Shown: piece after piece, positions 505-9,254 of the stretch
Layout of the letters: every line of letters starts with the position of its first letter
Numbering within the stretch: position 1 is the first letter of the stretch
DNA from: Planctomycetota bacterium
Lineage (GTDB): Bacteria > Planctomycetota > SZUA-567
Direction: 5' to 3'
NCBI GenBank assembly: GCA_031254915.1
Contig: JAIRTL010000009.1
Coordinates: 1-12,072, forward strand
Length of the DNA stretch: 12,072 nucleotides
The notes under the pieces: model-generated
What the model was told of the DNA's origin: nothing
The model's input: only the letters and a program-made list of their open reading frames with translations
The model's database searches: none
Program-made: the position numbers and the translations under genes

Positions 505-2088
505 ATGCCAACCGACGAGGAACTCGATCTGTTGCAGTCCGGAAAACGCTTTCCCCCCAGGAATCCGAAAAAGGGCAAATGGGCCAGGAAGGCGATAAAG
601 ACGATGATTATGGGAACGGCACTGGCGTTCGTCGTCGCCCTCCTCGTCTTTGTCGGCCTGTTCATATGGTACGGCTGCCGGATCGAGCCGGAAGGCGACC
701 AGATCGCCATCCTGATCCGCAAAACAGGCGAGGACCTCAAGGCCAACGAAATCATCTCCACCCGCGACGGGCAGAAAGGGATCAAGCTCGAAACCCTCCC
801 CGCCGGTCGCCACTTCTACAACCCGTACGACTGGGACTGGCAGCTCGCGACCGTCACCAACATCCCGGCCGGCCGCCTCGGCGTGGTGACGCGCCTGTAC
901 GGGGACGAACTCCCCGAGGGCGAGATCATCGCGCCCCCCGGGTTCAAGGGGATCGTCGAGGATATTCTTCGCCCCGGCAAGTACAGGATCAACCCGTACG
1001 CCGAACGGGTCGAAGTGTTCGACGCGATCACAATCCGTCCCGGTCATGTCGGCGTCGTCGCCAACCTCGCCGGCAGGGATCCCCTGCACAGCGATCTTCC
1101 CCCGGAAATGAAAAACGTCTTTATCGTCGGCGAAGGCGTCAAGGGGGTGCAGGACAGGACGCTGGGCCCGGGGACGTATTATCTCAACCCCTATCTCCAT
1201 TCGGTCGTGGAGGTGAACCTCCAGAGCCAACGCTTCGCCCTTCAGGGCGAGGACGCCATCTCCTTCCTCACCCAGGACGGCTTCACCGTCGTGGTCGAGG
1301 GGACGCTTGAATTCGCGATCACCCGCGACAGGGCGCCGCAACTGACCAACCAGGTCGGCGACATGGACGACATTCTCAAGAAGATCGTCCTTCCGAAGGC
1401 GCGCGGCTTTTCGCGGATCGAGGGAAGCAAGCACCCGGCGATCGACTTCATCGTCGGCGAAACGCGGCAGGAATTCCAGAACCGGCTTGAGCAGAACCTG
1501 ATCGCCCAATGCGCGCGCTGGGGCATCGACATCCGCTCCATGCTGATCCGGAACATCACTCCGCCCGCCGAGGTGACGGCGATCATCCGCGAGCGCGAGG
1601 TCGCGCTCCAGAACCAGAAGAAGATCGAGCAGCAGATCGAACAGGCGCGGTCGCAGGCGGAACTGACCCGCCAGGAGATGCTTGCCGTCCAGAACCGGGA
1701 AAAGGTGGAGTCGGAGACGGCGGCGATCCGCGCCCGCATCCAGGCGGAACAGGAGCAATCGGTGAAGATCACCTCGAGCATGCGCGAACTCGAGGTCGCG
1801 AAGCTCGAGGCGGAGGCGGCGAAGCTCCAGGCCGACGCCATCATGATCCGGGCCGAAGCCGACCGCGACGTGGTGAAAATGCGGAACACCGCCGAGGCGG
1901 ACGTCGCCAAGGCGATGGTGGACGCGTTCGGCGGCGGCGTGGACCTTGCCCGCTACACGCTCTACAAGAAAACGGCGCCGCTGATCCAGGCGATCGTCTC
2001 CACCGATCGCGCGCCCGGGTTGGGCGGCATTTTCGGTTCGTTCGCGCCGAAGACGCCCGGCGCGGGCGGCGGCGGACAGGGACGCTGA
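505..2088 (+). CDS. Flotillin-like SPFH/band-7 family membrane protein (paralog A): N-terminal TM/hairpin segment, three tandem PG-x-Y-x-NP repeats, SPFH core, long EA-rich coiled coil, Gly-rich C-tail.
   Basis: The 527-aa ORF has a purine-rich SD (GAGGGA) 8 nt upstream of the ATG. A hydrophobic segment MIMGTALAFVVALLVFVGLFIWYG follows a K/R-rich N-terminus. The SPFH-core-like block is FLTQDGFTVVVEGTLEFAI ... IDFIVGETRQEFQNRLEQNL ... GIDIRSMLIRNITPPAEV. The C-terminal heptad-like EA repeats (LEVAKLEAEAAKLQADAIMIRAEADRDV) are typical of flotillin/FloT/YqiK. The antisense 454-aa ORF 394..1758 is a GC artefact. Confidence 0.85.
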   Translation: MPTDEELDLLQSGKRFPPRNPKKGKWARKAIKTMIMGTALAFVVALLVFVGLFIWYGCRIEPEGDQIAILIRKTGEDLKANEIISTRDGQKGIKLETLPAGRHFYNPYDWDWQLATVTNIPAGRLGVVTRLYGDELPEGEIIAPPGFKGIVEDILRPGKYRINPYAERVEVFDAITIRPGHVGVVANLAGRDPLHSDLPPEMKNVFIVGEGVKGVQDRTLGPGTYYLNPYLHSVVEVNLQSQRFALQGEDAISFLTQDGFTVVVEGTLEFAITRDRAPQLTNQVGDMDDILKKIVLPKARGFSRIEGSKHPAIDFIVGETRQEFQNRLEQNLIAQCARWGIDIRSMLIRNITPPAEVTAIIREREVALQNQKKIEQQIEQARSQAELTRQEMLAVQNREKVESETAAIRARIQAEQEQSVKITSSMRELEVAKLEAEAAKLQADAIMIRAEADRDVVKMRNTAEADVAKAMVDAFGGGVDLARYTLYKKTAPLIQAIVSTDRAPGLGGIFGSFAPKTPGAGGGGQGR

Positions 2089-2089
2089 A

Positions 2090-2809
2090 ATGCCGGAGGA
2101 AGCAGGCGCGCCCGGCGATCGCGCGGAAGCGGTCCCCCGCCACCTCCGGATCGACGGCTTCGACGCCTATGTGAAGGCGGACGGAACCGACTACTGGCGG
2201 ATTCTCCGCACATTTTTGCATGGCGGCGTCGAAGCGGAGAATCTGAAGCACAACCGCGGCAAGCGCAAGGTTCACGCGTTCGATTTCGGGGGCAGGCGCT
2301 ACGTCCTCAAGCGCGACCTGATGCGGAGTCTCGGCCTGCGCCACGTTTTTCCCGGCGGCGGCTGGACCTACCACACCAGGATCATGCGCAAGGTCAACCG
2401 GGCGGTCGATCTCGGCTGCCGCGCGACGCCGGACATCTATCTGGTCGCCGAGAGGTGGAAAGGGAGGTTCCGGCAGGAAGCGTTCGTTCTCATGGAATTC
2501 GTCGAGGGAACGATACTGAGGGACGCCGGCGACGCGGGGAATTACCGCGACGCGATCCGCGAGGCGATGCTGGAAATGCACCGGTTCGGCCTCACGCTGT
2601 CGGACGTCAACAGCCGGAATTTCCTGGTCGGTCCGGACGGGGTGAAAGTGATAGACATCGCCTGCCGCTTCCCGGATTTCCTCTCGATCATCAGGGACGG
2701 GCTCAAGGTCAAGGCGCGGTATAACGTGGAATTGCCGGTCACCGGGCTCATGAACCGGTTCTTTGGATTCGCCATAGCGGTTTTTTACACTCTACGCGGG
2801 AAAACATGA
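2090..2809 (+). CDS. Small protein-kinase-like fold protein of the Kdo/WaaP/InaA lipopolysaccharide-kinase (RIO-like) type, embedded between the two SPFH genes.
   Basis: The 239-aa ORF starts 1 nt after the stop of the upstream gene (TGAaATG) and has an AGGGA SD. It has a Gly-rich loop plus Lys (AFDFGGRRYVLKRD) and a hinge-like acidic/hydrophobic motif (FVLMEFVEGTIL). The catalytic-loop-like block GLTLSDVNSRNFLVGPDGVKVIDIA parallels KdkA ICHTDLNAHNILL...LLDFD (D and N conserved, His replaced by Leu). The C-terminal tail GLMNRFFGFAIAVFYTL is hydrophobic. Comparison to KdkA and PF06293 is from memory, not a search. Confidence 0.7.
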   Translation: MPEEAGAPGDRAEAVPRHLRIDGFDAYVKADGTDYWRILRTFLHGGVEAENLKHNRGKRKVHAFDFGGRRYVLKRDLMRSLGLRHVFPGGGWTYHTRIMRKVNRAVDLGCRATPDIYLVAERWKGRFRQEAFVLMEFVEGTILRDAGDAGNYRDAIREAMLEMHRFGLTLSDVNSRNFLVGPDGVKVIDIACRFPDFLSIIRDGLKVKARYNVELPVTGLMNRFFGFAIAVFYTLRGKT

Positions 2810-4674
2810 TGCGCACAAACAACACAAACGGACTGCATGGGGATACGCCGATGAAAGACGCCGACGTCACCGCCATCACCACGGAAAATACGCTGAAAAA
2901 GGGAGGGCCGGGCTTTCTCCGCCGCCGCTTCGGCCTGATCGGCGGCGCGATCGTCGTTCTCGCCGTCCTTTGGGCGATCTGGTCGTGGGGCTTTTGCCGC
3001 TTCTACGTCGGCCCCGGCCAGATGGCGATCATCACGGCGAAGCGCGGCGATCCGCTGGAATCGGGACAGATCCTCGCCAGGCCGGGACAGAAAGGCGTGC
3101 TCGAAGACGTGCTTGGCGAAGGCAGGCACATCTGGAACCCGGTCTTCTACGACTGGGAGATCGTCGACGCCCAATACATTCCGCCGGGGAAGGTCGGCAT
3201 CCTGACCTCGCTCGTCGGCGAAGACCTTCCCCCCGGCGAGTTCCTCGCCGAACCGGGGCAGAAAGGCATCCGCCGGAAAGTCCTCGGTCCGGGCATGTAC
3301 CGCCTGAATCCGCGCGGCTACAGCATCGAGGTCATCGACGCCATGAGCATCCCCATGGGGTTCGCCGGCGTCGTCACCTACCTCAGCAGCGGCGATCTGC
3401 CGGCGAGCGCCTTCGTGAACGACAACGCCGACGAAAAAACCCGCCGCGACATTCTCCAGCCCGGCATCTATTACATCAACCCCCGCGCCCACCGGGTCAA
3501 CGCCGTCGAGGTCGGCGTCAACCAGGTTTCACTTCAGGGGCAGGACGGAGGCATGATCCTCACCAAGAGCGTCACCTTGGACGAAAACAACCTCATGATG
3601 CAGCGGCTGAACCAGAACATCCTCGCCGAACAGCGTCGGCAGCGCGCCGTCTACCAGCAGGACAGGCTGGGCGAGCAAAGCGCCGACCATTCCATCATGG
3701 CGGAAATGATGAACGACCCCGGCGCGCCCGCCAGGGGAATGCTCCGGAAGTCGCTGCCGTCGGCGCAGGCCCCGGGATCGGTCGACGGCCGCGCCATTTC
3801 GCTGGAAAGGGACGTGGCGCCGGCGATCGTCCTCGACCAGTACGTCAACTTCCCCTCCCGGGACGGCTTCGACATCCGGCTCGACATGACGGTCGAGTTC
3901 GAGCTCCGGCCCGAACATCTCGCTTCGATCTACAAGGTGTACGGCGACCTTCCGAGCGTGGTCGACAAGACAATCATGCCGCAGATCCTTTCCATCTCCC
4001 GGAACAAGGGTTCCGCCTACCGCGCCGTCGACTTCATCGCCGGCGAAGGCAGGGAGAAATTCCAGAACGACCTGACCGACACGCTCAAGGAATCGCTCGG
4101 CAAGGAGGACATCACCATCCACAGCGCCCTCATCCGCAACGTCAACGTCCCGGACCAGATTCTCGAACCGCTCCAGGTCGCGTCCCTGTCGCGCGAGACG
4201 GAACTGACCAACCGGGAAAAGCAGAACACCGCCCGCAAACAGGCCGACCTCAACCGGGAAATGTCGCTCATCAAGCAGTTCGGCGAGCAGGTCATGCAGG
4301 AGACGACCAAGCTCAAGGCCGAGATCGACGCCGAGCGCGAAAAGACGGTGGCGATGATCCAGGCGGACACCCTCCGGCGCATGGCGGCGATCGACAGGGA
4401 AACGGCCGGCGTCAGGGCGCAAAAGGTTGTGGCCATCGGCGAGGCGGAAGCCGATGCGCTGCGTCTGATCGAAATGGAACGCGCCATGGGCTTCGGAATG
4501 AAAGTCGCCGCCTTCGGCGCCGAAAGCGAAAATTTCGCGCTCTACGAATTCGCCAACAGCCTCAACCCGGAAATGCGCATCAACCTGCTCCACGCCGGCG
4601 AGGGAACCCTGTGGACGGACCTGCAGCGCGCCGGCGTCGGCGACCTCGGCGGATCGACGCTGCTGCGCGAATGA
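2806..4674 (+). CDS. Flotillin-like SPFH/band-7 family membrane protein (paralog B): same architecture as paralog A plus an ~85-aa Q/R-rich insertion before the SPFH core.
   Basis: The 622-aa ORF start ATGATG overlaps the kinase stop (ATGA), indicating translational coupling. An alternative start is M16 (nt 2851). A TM-like segment GLIGGAIVVLAVLWAIWSWGF follows KKGG..RRR. Repeats PGQKGVLEDVLGEGRHIWNP.., PGQKGIRRKVLGPGMYRLNP.., LQPGIYYINP.. mirror paralog A. The SPFH core FPSRDGFDIRLDMTVEFEL...VDFIAGEGREKFQNDL...ITIHSALIRNVNVPDQI aligns to paralog A residue-for-residue. The C-terminal coiled coil is EA-rich. The alternate-frame R/P-rich 583-aa ORF 2970..4721 and the antisense 400-aa ORF are artefacts. 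Confidence 0.85.
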   Translation: MMRTNNTNGLHGDTPMKDADVTAITTENTLKKGGPGFLRRRFGLIGGAIVVLAVLWAIWSWGFCRFYVGPGQMAIITAKRGDPLESGQILARPGQKGVLEDVLGEGRHIWNPVFYDWEIVDAQYIPPGKVGILTSLVGEDLPPGEFLAEPGQKGIRRKVLGPGMYRLNPRGYSIEVIDAMSIPMGFAGVVTYLSSGDLPASAFVNDNADEKTRRDILQPGIYYINPRAHRVNAVEVGVNQVSLQGQDGGMILTKSVTLDENNLMMQRLNQNILAEQRRQRAVYQQDRLGEQSADHSIMAEMMNDPGAPARGMLRKSLPSAQAPGSVDGRAISLERDVAPAIVLDQYVNFPSRDGFDIRLDMTVEFELRPEHLASIYKVYGDLPSVVDKTIMPQILSISRNKGSAYRAVDFIAGEGREKFQNDLTDTLKESLGKEDITIHSALIRNVNVPDQILEPLQVASLSRETELTNREKQNTARKQADLNREMSLIKQFGEQVMQETTKLKAEIDAEREKTVAMIQADTLRRMAAIDRETAGVRAQKVVAIGEAEADALRLIEMERAMGFGMKVAAFGAESENFALYEFANSLNPEMRINLLHAGEGTLWTDLQRAGVGDLGGSTLLRE

Positions 4675-5287: not shown

Positions 5288-6046
5288 ATGCCCGGCCGGC
5301 CGGAGCTGCCCCCAATCATCCCGGGCGTCTACCTCGTCGGTACGCCCATCGGCAACCTCGAGGACATCACCCTGCGCGCGCTCCGGGTGCTTGAATCCGC
5401 CAACGTCCTCGCGGCCGAGGACACCCGCGTCACCCGCAAACTTTTTCAAATCCACCAATTGCAACCACCGAAAACGATCTACGCCTGCAACGCCCACACG
5501 GAGGACAAGGTGGCGGAGCGCCTTGTCCGCCACGCGCAAGCGGGAAAAATCGTCGCCTACGCCTCGGACGCCGGCATGCCCGGCATTTCCGACCCCGGTT
5601 GCCGCATCGCCCGGGCGGCCGCGGCGGCGGGCGCGCATCTCGAGGTCATTCCCGGACCTAGCGCGGTTACGACTGCCATCGCCGCCTCCGGTATCAACGC
5701 CGCGTCCTTCACCTTCCTCGGCTTTCCCTCGCGCCGGAACGGACGCCTGCGGGAAGAACTGCGCCGCCACGGCGCGATGCTCCCGGCACTGGTTTTCTAT
5801 GAATCGCCGCATCGGTTGTCGCGACTGCTCGAAATCGCCAGGGAAATGCTCGGCGACGATCGCAATGCTGCAATATGTCTCGAATTGACCAAGAAATTCG
5901 AGCGTTTTTTCCGAGGAAAGTTGAGCGATGTGAGCGGAATTTTTCGCGATGCGGAAGTCCGTGGCGAAGCGGTGGTTGTGATTGCGGGCAAACGAAAATC
6001 GGCACGCGATTTTGCCGAAGGCGACGAAATACTGATTGACAATTAA
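5288..6046 (+). CDS. rsmI: 16S rRNA (cytidine1402-2'-O)-methyltransferase RsmI (tetrapyrrole-methylase fold)
   Basis: The 252-aa ORF starts 3 nt after the tag stop. The N-terminal motif GVYLVGTPIGNLEDITLRALRVLESANVLAAEDTRVT and the block ASDAGMPGISDPG...IPGPSAVTTAIAASG are characteristic of RsmI. Confidence 0.9.
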   Translation: MPGRPELPPIIPGVYLVGTPIGNLEDITLRALRVLESANVLAAEDTRVTRKLFQIHQLQPPKTIYACNAHTEDKVAERLVRHAQAGKIVAYASDAGMPGISDPGCRIARAAAAAGAHLEVIPGPSAVTTAIAASGINAASFTFLGFPSRRNGRLREELRRHGAMLPALVFYESPHRLSRLLEIAREMLGDDRNAAICLELTKKFERFFRGKLSDVSGIFRDAEVRGEAVVVIAGKRKSARDFAEGDEILIDN

Positions 6047-6063
6047 AACCGGATCCATACCAT
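6036..6063 (+). promoter_or_regulatory. Sigma70-like promoter candidate for the downstream small gene: -35 TTGACA (6036-6041, inside the last codons of rsmI), 16-bp spacer, -10-like TACCAT (6058-6063).
   Basis: Hexamers read directly from the sequence. The -10 lies inside the 26-bp palindrome. Promoter consensus for this unknown lineage is assumed to be E. coli-like. Confidence 0.3.
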
Positions 6064-6077
6064 ATATGGTATGGATC
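6052..6077. promoter_or_regulatory. 26-bp perfect palindrome GATCCATACCATATATGGTATGGATC. Candidate repressor operator with an NrdR-box-like AT core. Alternatively an RNA hairpin between rsmI and the downstream ORF.
   Basis: Perfect dyad symmetry verified base by base (6052-6064 pairs with 6065-6077). It sits 6 nt after the rsmI stop, overlaps the putative -10, and ends 20 nt before the start codon of the NrdD-like ORF. The central 16 bp ATACCATATATGGTAT matches about 12 of 16 positions of the NrdR-box consensus acaCwAtATaTwGtgt as I recall it. Confidence 0.4.
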
Positions 6078-6096
6078 GTTGTGAAAGGGACGAAAT

Positions 6097-6420
6097 ATGC
6101 AACTTATGGCGTTTTACGAACACGTGGAGAAGCACCCGGAACTGGAAGGCTTGGGGATCGAGTCCGGTTGTGTCGACAAGAGCGCGGGGGTGATTGTCAA
6201 AAATACCCAAAACAATCTCATGACCCGTCTGCCGGTCGCGGCGATCGAAGCGGCTGACTGGGATGTGATCGAGGATGTGCTCCTTGGCAAACGCGAACCG
6301 CAAGTGTTGCAGCACATGACCCGTGTCGTCGGTTACTTCAGCCGGGTCGAAAACTGGAACAAGTCCAAGGTCGGCGAACTCAGGGACCGCCACAAAGGCG
6401 ATTACTCCGTCGCCGGCTAG
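6097..6420 (+). CDS. Stand-alone glycyl-radical-domain protein homologous to the C-terminus of anaerobic (class III) ribonucleotide reductase NrdD. Possible spare-part or autonomous glycyl radical cofactor analogous to GrcA/YfiD.
   Basis: The 107-aa ORF has an SD AAAGGGA 7-13 nt upstream. The C-terminal motif TRVVGYFSRVENWNKSKVGELRDRHKG matches the NrdD glycyl-radical signature (T-R-V/I-C/V-G-Y ... N-x-G/S-K ... E ... D-R). The same RVxGY motif is shared with PFL and GrcA. There is no catalytic barrel or Zn-ribbon Cys cluster, so it is not a full NrdD. Confidence 0.65.
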   Translation: MQLMAFYEHVEKHPELEGLGIESGCVDKSAGVIVKNTQNNLMTRLPVAAIEAADWDVIEDVLLGKREPQVLQHMTRVVGYFSRVENWNKSKVGELRDRHKGDYSVAG

Positions 6421-6574
6421 TGGATAGCCGAGATCGAGAACGAGGTTCTGGGCGTTTTGCGAAGTTGAATGGACGTCCCATTGCGCATTTCGGCTTGTCC
6501 CATCGCATTCCAAAACGCCAGGTCTTTCGCAATAATCGGGCAACATACCCAAAACGCGGCATCCCCCCGACCTC

Positions 6575-6604
6575 GCGGTCGCCCCACTCCCCCGGGGCGA
6601 CCGC
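6575..6604. terminator. GC hairpin GCGGTCGCCCC-actccccc-GGGGCGACCGC (11-bp perfect stem) in the 315-bp gap between convergent genes. Candidate bidirectional, U-tract-less terminator or other structured RNA.
   Basis: Inverted repeat verified base by base. It lies 155 nt downstream of the plus-strand ORF ending at 6420 and about 130 nt downstream of the minus-strand regulator stop at 6736. No flanking U-run on either strand. Confidence 0.3.
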
Positions 6605-6735
6605 TCCATTTCGCCCCATATATGACTGCCGCAATGCGGGCAATCGCCCGATATGCCTGGCTGGCGGGGAGTCTTTTTTGAAAAAGGGCTTCCCTCCGGC
6701 GCGCTTTCGGAGATGTCCAGGGGGAAGCGGGGCGA

Positions 6736-8994
6736 TCAGCCGCCAATGAGGCGTTCGAGTTGGATTCTTGCGTTACGGAGCGCTTCGGCGGGCGTTTCTT
6801 TTCCCGAGACGGCGGCGTAGACCGCGCCGCCGAGGATGTTTTCGAACACCCGTTCCTCCACTTTTCCCCCGGTCGTGACTTTCGAGATGTTTCGTTCCCG
6901 GCTTTTGGCGAAGCTTTCCACCGATTTCGGCAGCCACGGATACAGGGCGCAGAGTTCGGAGTTGTGATAGACCTTGTTCGCGGGCGGCGCGCCGCCGAGT
7001 ATGGCGAGCGGGATCACGAGGTCTTGGTCGCAGGTCCAGCCGATGAAATCGAGCGCCGAATCGCGCGACCGGCTTTCGCGGTTGACCCCTAAGGTCCAGC
7101 CGCCAAGCATCGGCTTGCCGCCGGGGATGATGTCGTACCCGATGCGCCCGACCACCTTCGAGACGCGCCGGTCGGCGAGCGACGACACGTGCGCGAGGAA
7201 GAGGATCATCATCGCGGCCTGGCCGTCGCCGAAAAGCGCGGCCTGTTCATCCCACCAGAAGTCCTTCGAACCGGGCGGCGCGTAGCGGTAGCTTTCGGCG
7301 TAATTGGCGAGCGCGGCTTCCGCCTCGCGGCTGGCGAGGGAGTCGAGCATGTTTCCAGCCCCGAACGCGCCTTCGTGGAACGAGAGGAAGCGGGGCAGGA
7401 ATTCGCACACCGCGCCGTTCGGGTATTGTCCGCCCAGGGTGGTTCCGTATTCGGTCGGCGAATCGGGATTGAGCGATCTGGTGAAAAACGCCGCGATCTG
7501 ATTGAATTCGTGCCAGTTCCTGGGTGCGCGCAGTTCGTAACGGTAGCGCTTCCGGAAAGCGAACTTGAGGTGCGGGTCGTCGAACAGGTCCTTCCGGTAG
7601 AAAAGAATCTGCGCGCCGAAGAGGAACGGCACGGTATAGCATTTCCCCCCGTGCCGGCAATAGGCGTCGAGCACGCCGGGCAGCCAGGCCGAGGCGAGGC
7701 CGGGGCGGCTGTCGAGCCAGGCGTCAAGCTGGTGGAGAAGGCCGTCCTCGGCGGCTTCTCCGAGCCAGGGCTGGTCGACCTGGAAAATATCGTATTGGGA
7801 GCGCCGGGCCGGATCGCGCAGCAGTTCGCCGATCTCCACGACCGAGCGCTTGTCGATCTCCACCCTGACGCCGGAATTCTTCTGGAACGCGGGAAGCAGC
7901 GCCTCCACGGCCGAGCAGGCGCCGCCGGCGAGCATGAGCGCGCGCAGCACCCTGCCCCGTCCGCGCAGCCTTACCGATTTCCCGATCGTCGGGCCCTGGT
8001 CGGCGTCGAAGCGGGCGTTGTCGACGATCCGCCGCCTGTTCTTCGCGTCGTCGCTCCCGGAAAGCATGCCCAGAAGCAGCGCGGCCGCGCTTTCGCCAAG
8101 CTCCATGGCGTCGCGGCGCAACACCCTCGCCCCCACCGGCGACGCCGGCGCCCAGGATTCGATGCCTAGGCACACAAAGGCGGGCCCGTTGTCGAGTTCG
8201 AGCATCTTCACCGCCTGCCGCGCTCCGGCGAGGAGCTGGCTGGAGGTGGTGATGATTACGTCCGGCGGCGGCGCGACGCCGAGCCTGGAGACAAGTGCGC
8301 TAAAGGCGCTTTCCTTGTTGAAGTTCGTTTCGACCACCAGCCAGTCCCTCGGCGTCCCGCCAAAACGGTCGCCAAGGCCGTCGAGAAAACCGGCGGCATA
8401 GCCGGCTTCGCTCGAATTCTCGCGCGGTCCGGCGAGAAGCAGGGGATTGCGGCAGCCCTCAGCCAGCAATTGGCGCACAAGGTCGCGCATATGCTTTTCG
8501 CCGTCGAAGCCGACGAACGGGAAGACGCGGCGATGCGGCTCGCGCTCGACGAAAACAAACGGCGTGCCGTTGTCGTAGACGCTCTGGAACATCGAGGCGG
8601 AATCGGGCTGGCAGGTGACGATGACGATGCCTTCGGCGTTCTGCTTCACGAACTGCCCTATCGCGCGCTGCTCGCGCGCCTGAATCTCCGAAGTGGTGCA
8701 GAGCTGGACGACATAGCCGTTTTCGCTCAATACCTGGTTGACGCCGGCGTAAATGCCGGCGAACGTGGCGTCCTGAACCGACGGCAATACGACGCCGATG
8801 CACCTGGTCTTTCTCGCCTTGCCGCCGGAACGGGCGGGAAAATGCGCGCGGTAGCCGGTCTTGCGAATCGCCGCCTGAACGCGTTGGACCATGGACAAGC
8901 TGACCCGGCGATCGCCCTTGAGAACATTCGAGACCGTGCCGACAGATACGCCGGCCGCCTCCGCAACGTCCTTCATCGTCGCCTGAAGCGCCAT
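6736..8994 (-). CDS. Fusion transcriptional regulator: LacI-family HTH + LacI-type (PBP type I) sugar-binding domain + a complete family-1 extracellular solute-binding-protein (MalE-like, PBP type II) domain.
   Basis: The long minus-strand ORF is 770 aa from the first in-frame Met at 9048. The likely true start is MALQATMKDV (nt 8994) or MKDVAEAAG (nt 8976), giving about 750 aa. HTH: MKDVAEAAGVSVGTVSNVLKGDRRVSLSMVQRVQAAIRKTGYRAH, a canonical LacI/PurR motif. Residues about 80-340 have the LacI ligand-domain pattern (IGVVLPSVQDATFAGIYAGV...YVVQLCTT...IVIVTC). Residues about 370-770 show SBP_bac_1 features (FQKNSGVRVEID..., YDIFQVDQPWLGE, YTVPFLFGAQILFYRKDLF, WWDEQAALFGDGQAAMMI, GGWTLGVNRES). 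There is no signal peptide, so it is cytoplasmic. The overlapping plus-strand ORFs (e.g. 7189..8169, 8470..9435) are artefacts. Confidence 0.8.
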   Translation of the reverse strand: MALQATMKDVAEAAGVSVGTVSNVLKGDRRVSLSMVQRVQAAIRKTGYRAHFPARSGGKARKTRCIGVVLPSVQDATFAGIYAGVNQVLSENGYVVQLCTTSEIQAREQRAIGQFVKQNAEGIVIVTCQPDSASMFQSVYDNGTPFVFVEREPHRRVFPFVGFDGEKHMRDLVRQLLAEGCRNPLLLAGPRENSSEAGYAAGFLDGLGDRFGGTPRDWLVVETNFNKESAFSALVSRLGVAPPPDVIITTSSQLLAGARQAVKMLELDNGPAFVCLGIESWAPASPVGARVLRRDAMELGESAAALLLGMLSGSDDAKNRRRIVDNARFDADQGPTIGKSVRLRGRGRVLRALMLAGGACSAVEALLPAFQKNSGVRVEIDKRSVVEIGELLRDPARRSQYDIFQVDQPWLGEAAEDGLLHQLDAWLDSRPGLASAWLPGVLDAYCRHGGKCYTVPFLFGAQILFYRKDLFDDPHLKFAFRKRYRYELRAPRNWHEFNQIAAFFTRSLNPDSPTEYGTTLGGQYPNGAVCEFLPRFLSFHEGAFGAGNMLDSLASREAEAALANYAESYRYAPPGSKDFWWDEQAALFGDGQAAMMILFLAHVSSLADRRVSKVVGRIGYDIIPGGKPMLGGWTLGVNRESRSRDSALDFIGWTCDQDLVIPLAILGGAPPANKVYHNSELCALYPWLPKSVESFAKSRERNISKVTTGGKVEERVFENILGGAVYAAVSGKETPAEALRNARIQLERLIGG

Positions 8995-9254
8995 CACTCC
9001 GCCCCCGTCCAAAAATCCGGCCCCGACCCCGGCTCCATGCTTTCGCACCCGCCCTCACCCCGGATCGGCGTTTTCAGCCGGGAGGACGGATGGAGCGATA
9101 CCGCTTCCAGCCAATTAGTGCTTTTTTGCGTCCTTGCAGCTTCCCGCGTTCCACTTCGCGCCATTGTTTTCGAGGGCGTTGGACCAGTCGAGGGAACGGC
9201 AACTTTCGACCGGAAAAGGCATGCGCCCGTTTGTTGTCGCAATCCCCCGCGCTT

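Follow-up and report, generated by a model that had tools for sequence, protein, structure and literature searches.

A predicted NrdR operator on the promoter of a stand-alone glycyl-radical-domain gene in Planctomycetota

The 12,072-nucleotide contig JAIRTL010000009.1 of a Planctomycetota bacterium (lineage SZUA-567, assembly GCA_031254915.1), analyzed here over its whole length and referred to as the window, carries a perfect 26-bp palindrome in the short spacer between rsmI and a small gene whose product ends in a glycyl-radical motif. What is this palindrome for, and what does it tell us about the gene that follows? We identify the element as a box for NrdR, the Zn-ribbon/ATP-cone repressor of the ribonucleotide reductase (RNR) genes of DNA-precursor synthesis, because its sequence, its position and its homology with other promoters agree. 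The 16-bp core of the palindrome very probably descends from an NrdR operator and, with somewhat less assurance, probably still serves as a repressor site on the promoter of the small gene. The coordinates of all features are collected in Table 1.

The palindrome and its core

The sequence GATCCATACCATATATGGTATGGATC at positions 6052 to 6077 consists of two 13-nt arms with no spacer and 100% complementarity, exactly as described in an earlier note on this DNA. It lies between the rsmI stop codon (6044 to 6046) and the ATG at 6097, where it covers the predicted -10 hexamer and start site. The longest arm found in 300 dinucleotide-preserving shuffles did not exceed 11 nt, and the runner-up among the unspaced perfect palindromes of the window has arms of 8 nt, so that the earlier judgment of a symmetry very unlikely to arise by chance in GC-rich DNA holds well (the window has 60 to 68% GC, with a dip to 53.5% around the palindrome). 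A REP-like repeated palindromic element, or a mere accident of sequence, would share the palindromic form. However, the window has a single copy of GATCCATACCATATATGGTATGGATC, even with up to three mismatches (0 of 200 shuffles gave a match), 13-nt arms appeared in no shuffle, the flanks recur in none of the 120 metagenome copies of the core among the matches listed (see below), and this core is homologous to the boxes of orthologous promoters. We therefore give this explanation practically no credence. Repeats of the 26-mer, which the earlier note had named as a sign against its own proposal, were found neither in the window nor in the fetched loci nor in the metagenome copies among the matches listed.

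The published NrdR site is made of two partly palindromic 16-bp boxes, 15 to 16 bp apart, with conserved C4, A6, A8, T9, T11 and G13; the C and the G are spaced 8 bp, and A+T between them is at least 63% (PMC13584703). The central 16 bp of the palindrome, ATACCATATATGGTAT, have all six of these positions, and A+T between C4 and G13 is 75%. When scored with a symmetrized matrix built from 52 boxes of related loci, from which the window and its closest relative had been excluded, ATACCATATATGGTAT reached 20.1 bits, while the second-best site of the window had 6.9 bits. A cutoff of 10 bits for single boxes was dropped, as it gave hundreds of matches in A/T-rich loci, and pair- and rule-based tests were used instead.

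The box contains the predicted -10 hexamer of the gene that carries the NrdD glycyl-radical motif. TTGACA-N16-TACCAT scored 10 of 12 in the promoter scan, the sole promoter-like call within positions 5800 to 6900, and would place the transcription start at about 6069 to 6071. The overlap of palindrome and promoter reported by the earlier note was thus confirmed. Its likening of the core to an NrdR box was also borne out, by the six conserved positions and the matrix score as well as by the box pairs of orthologs and the occurrence of the same 16-mer at metagenomic nrdD genes, both presented below.

Table 1. Features of the promoter region and of its two flanking genes (positions in the window)
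Feature	Position	Strand	Basis
rsmI (16S rRNA C1402 2'-O-methyltransferase)	5288..6046	+	TIGR00096, E = 1e-55; synteny with L008 and L088
Degenerate remnant of the distal box, GAAATACTGATTGACA	6026..6041	unstranded	15-bp linker to the proximal box; site of ACACAAGATATTGACA-type boxes in orthologs
Predicted -35 hexamer, TTGACA	6036..6041	+	within the 3' end of rsmI; invariant in the four closest relatives
Perfect 26-bp palindrome, GATCCATACCATATATGGTATGGATC	6052..6077	unstranded	13-nt arms, 100% complementary; none such in shuffles
NrdR box (promoter proximal), ATACCATATATGGTAT	6057..6072	unstranded	6/6 conserved positions; best matrix score; aligns with ortholog boxes
Predicted -10 hexamer, TACCAT	6058..6063	+	left half of the NrdR box; TACTAT or TACAAT at the same place in orthologs
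Ribosome-binding site, AAGGG	6085..6089	+	7 nt 5' of the ATG; GAAAGG invariant in the clade alignment
Half-box, GGACGAAATATGCAAC	6088..6103	unstranded	over ribosome-binding spacer and ATG; 15-bp linker downstream (31 bp start to start)
107-aa stand-alone NrdD-type glycyl-radical-domain protein	6097..6420	+	profile and homologue comparison
Possible partner box, ATGCAACTTATGGCGT	6097..6112	unstranded	codons 1 to 6; 24-bp linker

Transcribed into RNA, the same symmetry makes an 11-bp stem closed by a 4-nt loop (in context -18.4 kcal/mol, with z = -3.45), and the palindrome might instead serve as terminator or 3'-end stabilizer of the rsmI transcript, or as a hairpin in the leader of the small gene. 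Such a function would account for the symmetry beyond 16 bp, and the terminator-like hairpins that follow rsmI in the related locus L008 are lost in the window, where the spacer has shrunk to 50 nt. However, no U-tract follows the stem on the plus strand (GUUGUGAAAGGG), and for this reason the rsmI terminator, which the earlier note had offered as an alternative, is not favored, although the stem itself is present. The terminator scan calls the site on the minus strand only, where no gene ends; the related locus L088, with the same synteny from rsmI to the small gene, has neither the hairpin nor the extended palindrome; and there is no match in Rfam. Besides, the predicted start (around 6070) falls inside the right arm, so that the mRNA of the small gene would be without the stem. 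A role in RNA is, in our view, improbable.

To place the core in a wider context, metagenomes were scanned for the exact 16-mer, which provided a sample of at least 120 loci; the contig of the window was not among the matches listed. A strong second box at the canonical spacing was present in 21 of 120 listed loci. Among the matches listed, the open reading frames (ORFs) flanking these partnered copies coded for NrdD in 12 of 22 cases and for NrdR in 1 of 22, while the 99 ORFs flanking partnerless copies included no RNR family among the 25 families listed. The exact 16-mer thus serves genuine nrdD operons as an NrdR box. The solitary copies elsewhere are mostly due to chance, and nothing points to a repeated element. 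Among the matches listed, three of the 99 ORFs next to solitary copies are LexA-like, with an S24 peptidase and a LexA DNA-binding domain. Two copies of the 16-mer (L185, 6492 to 6507, and L200, 606 to 621) lie each inside a 30-bp perfect palindrome, and a third (L146, 13 to 28) lies inside a 40-bp perfect palindrome with a partner box 31 bp away; extended palindromes around NrdR boxes thus recur occasionally.

The extension of the symmetry from 16 to 26 bp is seen, in the clade alignment, in this contig only, and neither the 120 copies of the core among the listed metagenome matches nor any other fetched locus has the flanks GATCC/GGATC. This extension is specific to the contig, and the NrdR model offers no explanation for it. 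An operator of another symmetric dimeric regulator, LexA-like or lineage specific, that reads all 26 bp would fit a symmetry larger than the NrdR footprint, and the three LexA-like neighbors and the 30-bp palindromes found among the listed copies point in the same direction. Against such a regulator, no other copy among the matches listed has these flanks, and what the orthologs conserve is the NrdR pattern and the 31-bp pairing rather than a 26-bp symmetry. The nearest regulator gene on the contig codes for a LacI-type fusion, a family whose operators are unrelated. We regard this alternative as very improbable.

Orthologous promoters and the decayed partner box

A scan of one genome per species retrieved 80 loci encoding the small protein (loci are designated L plus a number), and more loci came from look-ups of exact proteins. 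Just before the small gene, most Planctomycetota orthologs have two boxes whose starts are exactly 31 bp from each other. ATTGACA closes the distal box, so that TTGACA, the -35 hexamer, is at the same time its right end, and the -10 hexamer (TACAAT, TACTAT or TACCAT) falls in the left half of the proximal box. The anammox relatives (Brocadiales, Scalindua) have equally canonical pairs farther upstream. In seven Brocadiales loci (L074, L077, L078, L080, L083, L087 and L218) the boxes are located 200 to 290 nt before the start codon and a long leader follows the promoter; in L218, from Brocadia, there is a third box downstream of the promoter, and its long leader had no Rfam match. Two other loci, L015 and L016, show three boxes at about -89, -58 and -36 (31 plus 22 bp).

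The pairing was evaluated in two ways. We considered as strong pairs those with boxes 31 to 32 bp apart that jointly agree with the consensus at 23 or more of its 32 positions. The 826 kb of these loci contain 32 strong pairs, and each of them is located either 68 to 269 nt upstream of a small gene or at the head of nrdR-first or nrdG-first operons that contain nrdD. With a rule taken from the literature only (C4 plus G13, at least five of the six conserved positions, A+T of at least 62.5%), a pair with a linker of 14 to 17 bp was present in 29/79 upstream regions and in 7/1809 background windows of 350 nt. Out-of-phase linkers (18 to 23 bp) showed no enrichment, with a pair in 2/79 upstream regions and 11/1809 background windows. 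A box that is not upstream of any nrd gene would have counted, for the earlier note, against an NrdR site; the ortholog pairs and the metagenomic nrdD loci tie it to nrd genes.

The repressor itself is found in the phylum, with nrdR immediately upstream of nrdD in Phycisphaerae (L212 to L214) and Brocadia (L215, L216), and NrdR has been reported as conserved across the Planctomycetes-Verrucomicrobia-Chlamydiae (PVC) superphylum (PMC4989314). The region upstream of nrdR-nrdD in the Phycisphaerae locus L212 (9005 to 9229) contains a weak pair 31 bp apart (9093, 9124) over the promoter, flanked by strong isolated boxes at 9005 and 9214, some 209 bp from each other, a layout suggestive of looping or of NrdR binding of a higher order. 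The fused nrdR-nrdD of Planctomycetia (L076) had no canonical box pair in its upstream region.

The closest relatives by protein identity, L088 (89%), L008 (84%) and L090 (82%), share with the window the rsmI synteny, the TTGACA-N16-TACyAT promoter and the left flank CGrATCCATAC; by the clade alignment, this promoter and the proximal box are retained by all four of the closest relatives. Like the window, L088, L008 and L090 are without a good distal box. In L088, a second box is found instead 21 bp downstream (707 to 743); such two-turn spacing is not covered by the published linker series (12 to 27 bp).

The promoter of the window has one good box only. At the place of the distal box, GAAATACTGATTGACA conserves three of the six positions, lacks C4 and scores -2.0 bits; what is retained is the half that forms the -35. 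Two other sequences could act as partners. The half-box GGACGAAATATGCAAC, identical in L008 and L090, has five of the six positions, without G13 (-2.05 bits), and ATGCAACTTATGGCGT, with C4 and G13 among its five of six positions, scores 6.05 bits, the fourth best of the window. The probability of finding ATGCAACTTATGGCGT as a partner by chance is about 0.015 to 0.03 with the rule-based background. A second optimum of 24 to 27 bp has been described for the linker of NrdR boxes (PMC12051234). The earlier note had remarked on a single box where pairs are usual. This stands for the window, and relatives do carry pairs; to this we add that the partner has decayed in the lineage of the window.

The 3' end of rsmI overlaps both the -35 and the decayed distal box, and its stop codon is downstream of the -35. 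The spacer between rsmI and the small gene measures 50 nt in the window; in L088 it has 118 nt, and in L008 about 210 nt. The gene is 17 codons longer at its 3' end (5993 to 6046) than in L008 and L088, an extension that was found only in the window and reads former intergenic DNA, which puts the -35 of the next gene inside rsmI. Decay of the partner box probably followed the shrinkage of the spacer to 50 nt. A terminator-like hairpin at 5999 to 6018 was called on the minus strand only.

One consequence could be that the core, although derived from an NrdR box, is a partnerless relic without useful NrdR binding, the gene being constitutive or controlled in some other way. This is in line with the requirement for two boxes in vitro and in vivo, with the degenerate distal box of the window and of its close relatives L008 and L090, and with the solitary metagenome copies of the 16-mer that, among the matches listed, have no listed nrd link. 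A relic should drift, however, and the box of the window retains its six key positions and, as a perfect palindrome, surpasses those of L008 and L090. Furthermore, the promoter region of a real nrdR-nrdD operon in Phycisphaerae also has strong isolated boxes, and the window offers weak partner candidates at in-phase distances. We find a relic unlikely.

Several points weigh against an operator that works today. NrdR from Escherichia coli and Streptomyces coelicolor has been reported not to bind a single box, with binding 530 to 1000 times weaker when one box is intact (PMC12051234, PMC13584703). In the window no canonical partner is seen, and its best candidate, at 6097 to 6112, falls in coding sequence, with a linker at the edge of the 24-to-27-bp range. 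NrdR contacts are confined to the 16-bp box, which leaves five extra symmetric base pairs per side unaccounted for. The promoter and the transcription start are consensus predictions. Finally, neither nrdR nor any other nrd gene is present on this complete 12-kb contig, so that the repressor is assumed, and we infer its presence in this organism.

If the core still is a repressor site, as we believe probable, loss of the canonical partner would make control weaker or dependent on the weak partner at 6097 to 6112 or 6088 to 6103; given the much weaker binding to lone boxes in E. coli and S. coelicolor, the site may give weak repression, rely on a weak partner or have a mode of binding peculiar to the lineage. 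Against the two-box rule, NrdR may even bind a lone, perfectly symmetric 26-bp box that has no canonical partner, and with one excellent box and a decayed partner this site is a natural test of that rule. The mechanism that we propose is modeled on E. coli and S. coelicolor. A rise in dATP over ATP would lead tetrameric NrdR to bind the box, kink its A/T-rich center and block RNA polymerase on the sigma-70-type promoter, and the small gene would thereby be expressed together with the other RNR genes. For this organism, NrdR binding and repression are predictions, as is the transcription start.

The small gene, its family and its neighborhood

The 107-aa product of the small gene matches only positions 532 to 561 of the 562 of Pfam NRDD, with 24.6 bits (the cutoff is 26.2), and the matched part is the glycyl-radical motif, here TRVVGYFSRVENWNKSK. 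Its 33 C-terminal residues are 76% identical to the C terminus of a full-length NrdD of Phycisphaerae, including RVVGYFSR. The earlier note had called the gene NrdD-like and glycyl-radical. The second term is right, and the first has to be corrected, as this is not NrdD: the last 30 residues or so are all that match, below the Pfam cutoff. The proteins form a conserved family of about 105 to 130 aa (the window protein gave 167 matches and a Brocadiales member 287, most of them in metagenome-assembled genomes of Planctomycetota), whose alignment has 26 invariant columns and supports the start at 6097. AlphaFold predicts a confident N-terminal domain (residues 1 to 62, pLDDT of about 90) and a low-confidence C terminus. 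A profile search against PDB sequences gave no meaningful match, and Foldseek with the model found nothing in PDB below E = 0.1. Two ORFs were set aside. A 107-aa ORF in the Phycisphaerae nrd operon of L212 looks thioredoxin-like by sequence, with a CGAC motif, and is a different protein from the small one. A frame of 1089 codons in L032 that contains the small gene has no Pfam match and was taken as a high-GC artifact.

The origin of such a protein is suggested by eight loci from Auribacterota, Elusimicrobia and unclassified bacteria (L055, L059, L064, L068, L069, L072, L075 and L079), in which NrdD is split: nrdD stops past the Zn ribbon, and the very next gene is the small one. These nrdD genes cover positions 1 to 528 or 533 of the 562 of Pfam NRDD and are without the glycine motif. 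Where the contig reaches, NrdR boxes, nrdR, a thioredoxin-like gene and nrdG are found in the same locus. Judging by this arrangement, NrdD is naturally split in Auribacterota and Elusimicrobia, where the small protein would be its detached radical subunit.

A different picture emerges where NrdD is full length. The 120 closest homologues of a Planctomycetia NrdD, the named ones being from Phycisphaerae, Brocadia and Jettenia, all have a glycyl-radical motif of their own. In Brocadia, the complete genome CP091279.1 has a full-length nrdR-nrdD-nrdG operon (L215; 2,752,185 to 2,774,632) and, more than 1.1 Mb apart, the small gene (L218; 1,584,723 to 1,593,115) with three NrdR boxes of its own. 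A Jettenia contig of 3,970,402 bp apparently also has both NrdD and the small protein. In organisms of this kind, Brocadia being the example, the small protein is a candidate spare part for NrdD. A 2026 review considers spare-part proteins as known only for formate lyases, with other glycyl-radical enzymes as an open question (PMC13450708), and neither a split NrdD nor an NrdD spare part was found in the literature searched.

The operator and the family can be joined in one reading. The operator would place the family in the NrdR regulon, and the protein would be the first spare part of a class III RNR, replacing an oxygen-cleaved tail, where NrdD is full length (shown for Brocadia and likely in the phylum of the window), and an obligate subunit of split NrdD in Auribacterota and Elusimicrobia. 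We advance this reading tentatively, as a serious possibility that falls a little short of being probable. A widespread unnamed protein of about 107 aa, now annotated as hypothetical or mislabeled as an anaerobic RNR, becomes tied to deoxyribonucleotide synthesis by regulatory evidence, and the NrdR boxes, the split-gene relatives and the coexistence with full-length NrdD make the question of spare parts outside the formate lyases directly testable.

As for the rest of the window, the 315 nt that follow the small gene (6421 to 6735) gave no conserved ORF and no Pfam, NCBIfam or Rfam match. They include an 11-bp perfect inverted repeat at 6575 to 6604. Two ORFs here, at 6420 to 6749 (plus strand) and 6417 to 6746 (minus strand), were treated as noncoding, with no Pfam or NCBIfam match and no counterpart in related loci. 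The search of Rfam found nothing in the whole window at gathering thresholds, nor in 5950 to 6800 at an E value of ≤1. The LacI-type fusion mentioned above is a 770-aa ORF of unusual architecture (6736 to 9048, minus strand), in which a repressor with a LacI-type helix-turn-helix and a periplasmic-binding fold is fused to an extracellular solute-binding protein domain, SBP_bac_1. Upstream of rsmI, at 505 to 4674 (plus strand), the gene of a WaaY-like kinase lies between those of two long SPFH/Band-7 proteins (527 and 622 aa), apparently as one operon.

Comparison with known systems

As a DNA element, the operator is of a known kind, an NrdR box; its value is in what it marks, a stand-alone glycyl-radical protein linked to the RNR regulon. 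It shares with the sites of E. coli nrdDG and nrdHIEF and of S. coelicolor nrdRJ and nrdAB the partly palindromic 16-bp box, the six conserved positions and the A/T-rich center. As in those systems, the box overlaps the promoter of an RNR-related gene, and box pairs with a 15-bp linker occur in the orthologous promoters. Unlike them, the window has one good box and a perfect palindrome extended to 26 bp, and the regulated gene codes for a stand-alone glycyl-radical domain, not for a catalytic, radical-generating or activase component of RNR.

The closest parallel for the protein is GrcA (YfiD), which replaces the oxygen-cleaved radical tail of pyruvate formate-lyase. Like GrcA, the small protein has a C terminus that copies the glycyl-radical motif of a large enzyme, and its gene lies apart from the enzyme gene and coexists with a full-length copy in at least one genome. 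However, the parent enzyme would be a class III RNR rather than pyruvate formate-lyase, the 60 N-terminal residues are predicted to form a folded domain where GrcA has a disordered tail, and the gene would be under NrdR control, unlike that of GrcA. Any rescue activity of the small protein is putative.

For the split enzymes, the comparison is with nrdJab of Pseudomonas aeruginosa, since in Auribacterota and Elusimicrobia the catalytic protein is likewise encoded by two adjacent genes under NrdR boxes. The split NrdD differs in that only the glycyl-radical tail after the Zn ribbon has been removed, and the phylum of the window departs further from nrdJab, as the two genes are unlinked there and the NrdD homologues examined are full length.

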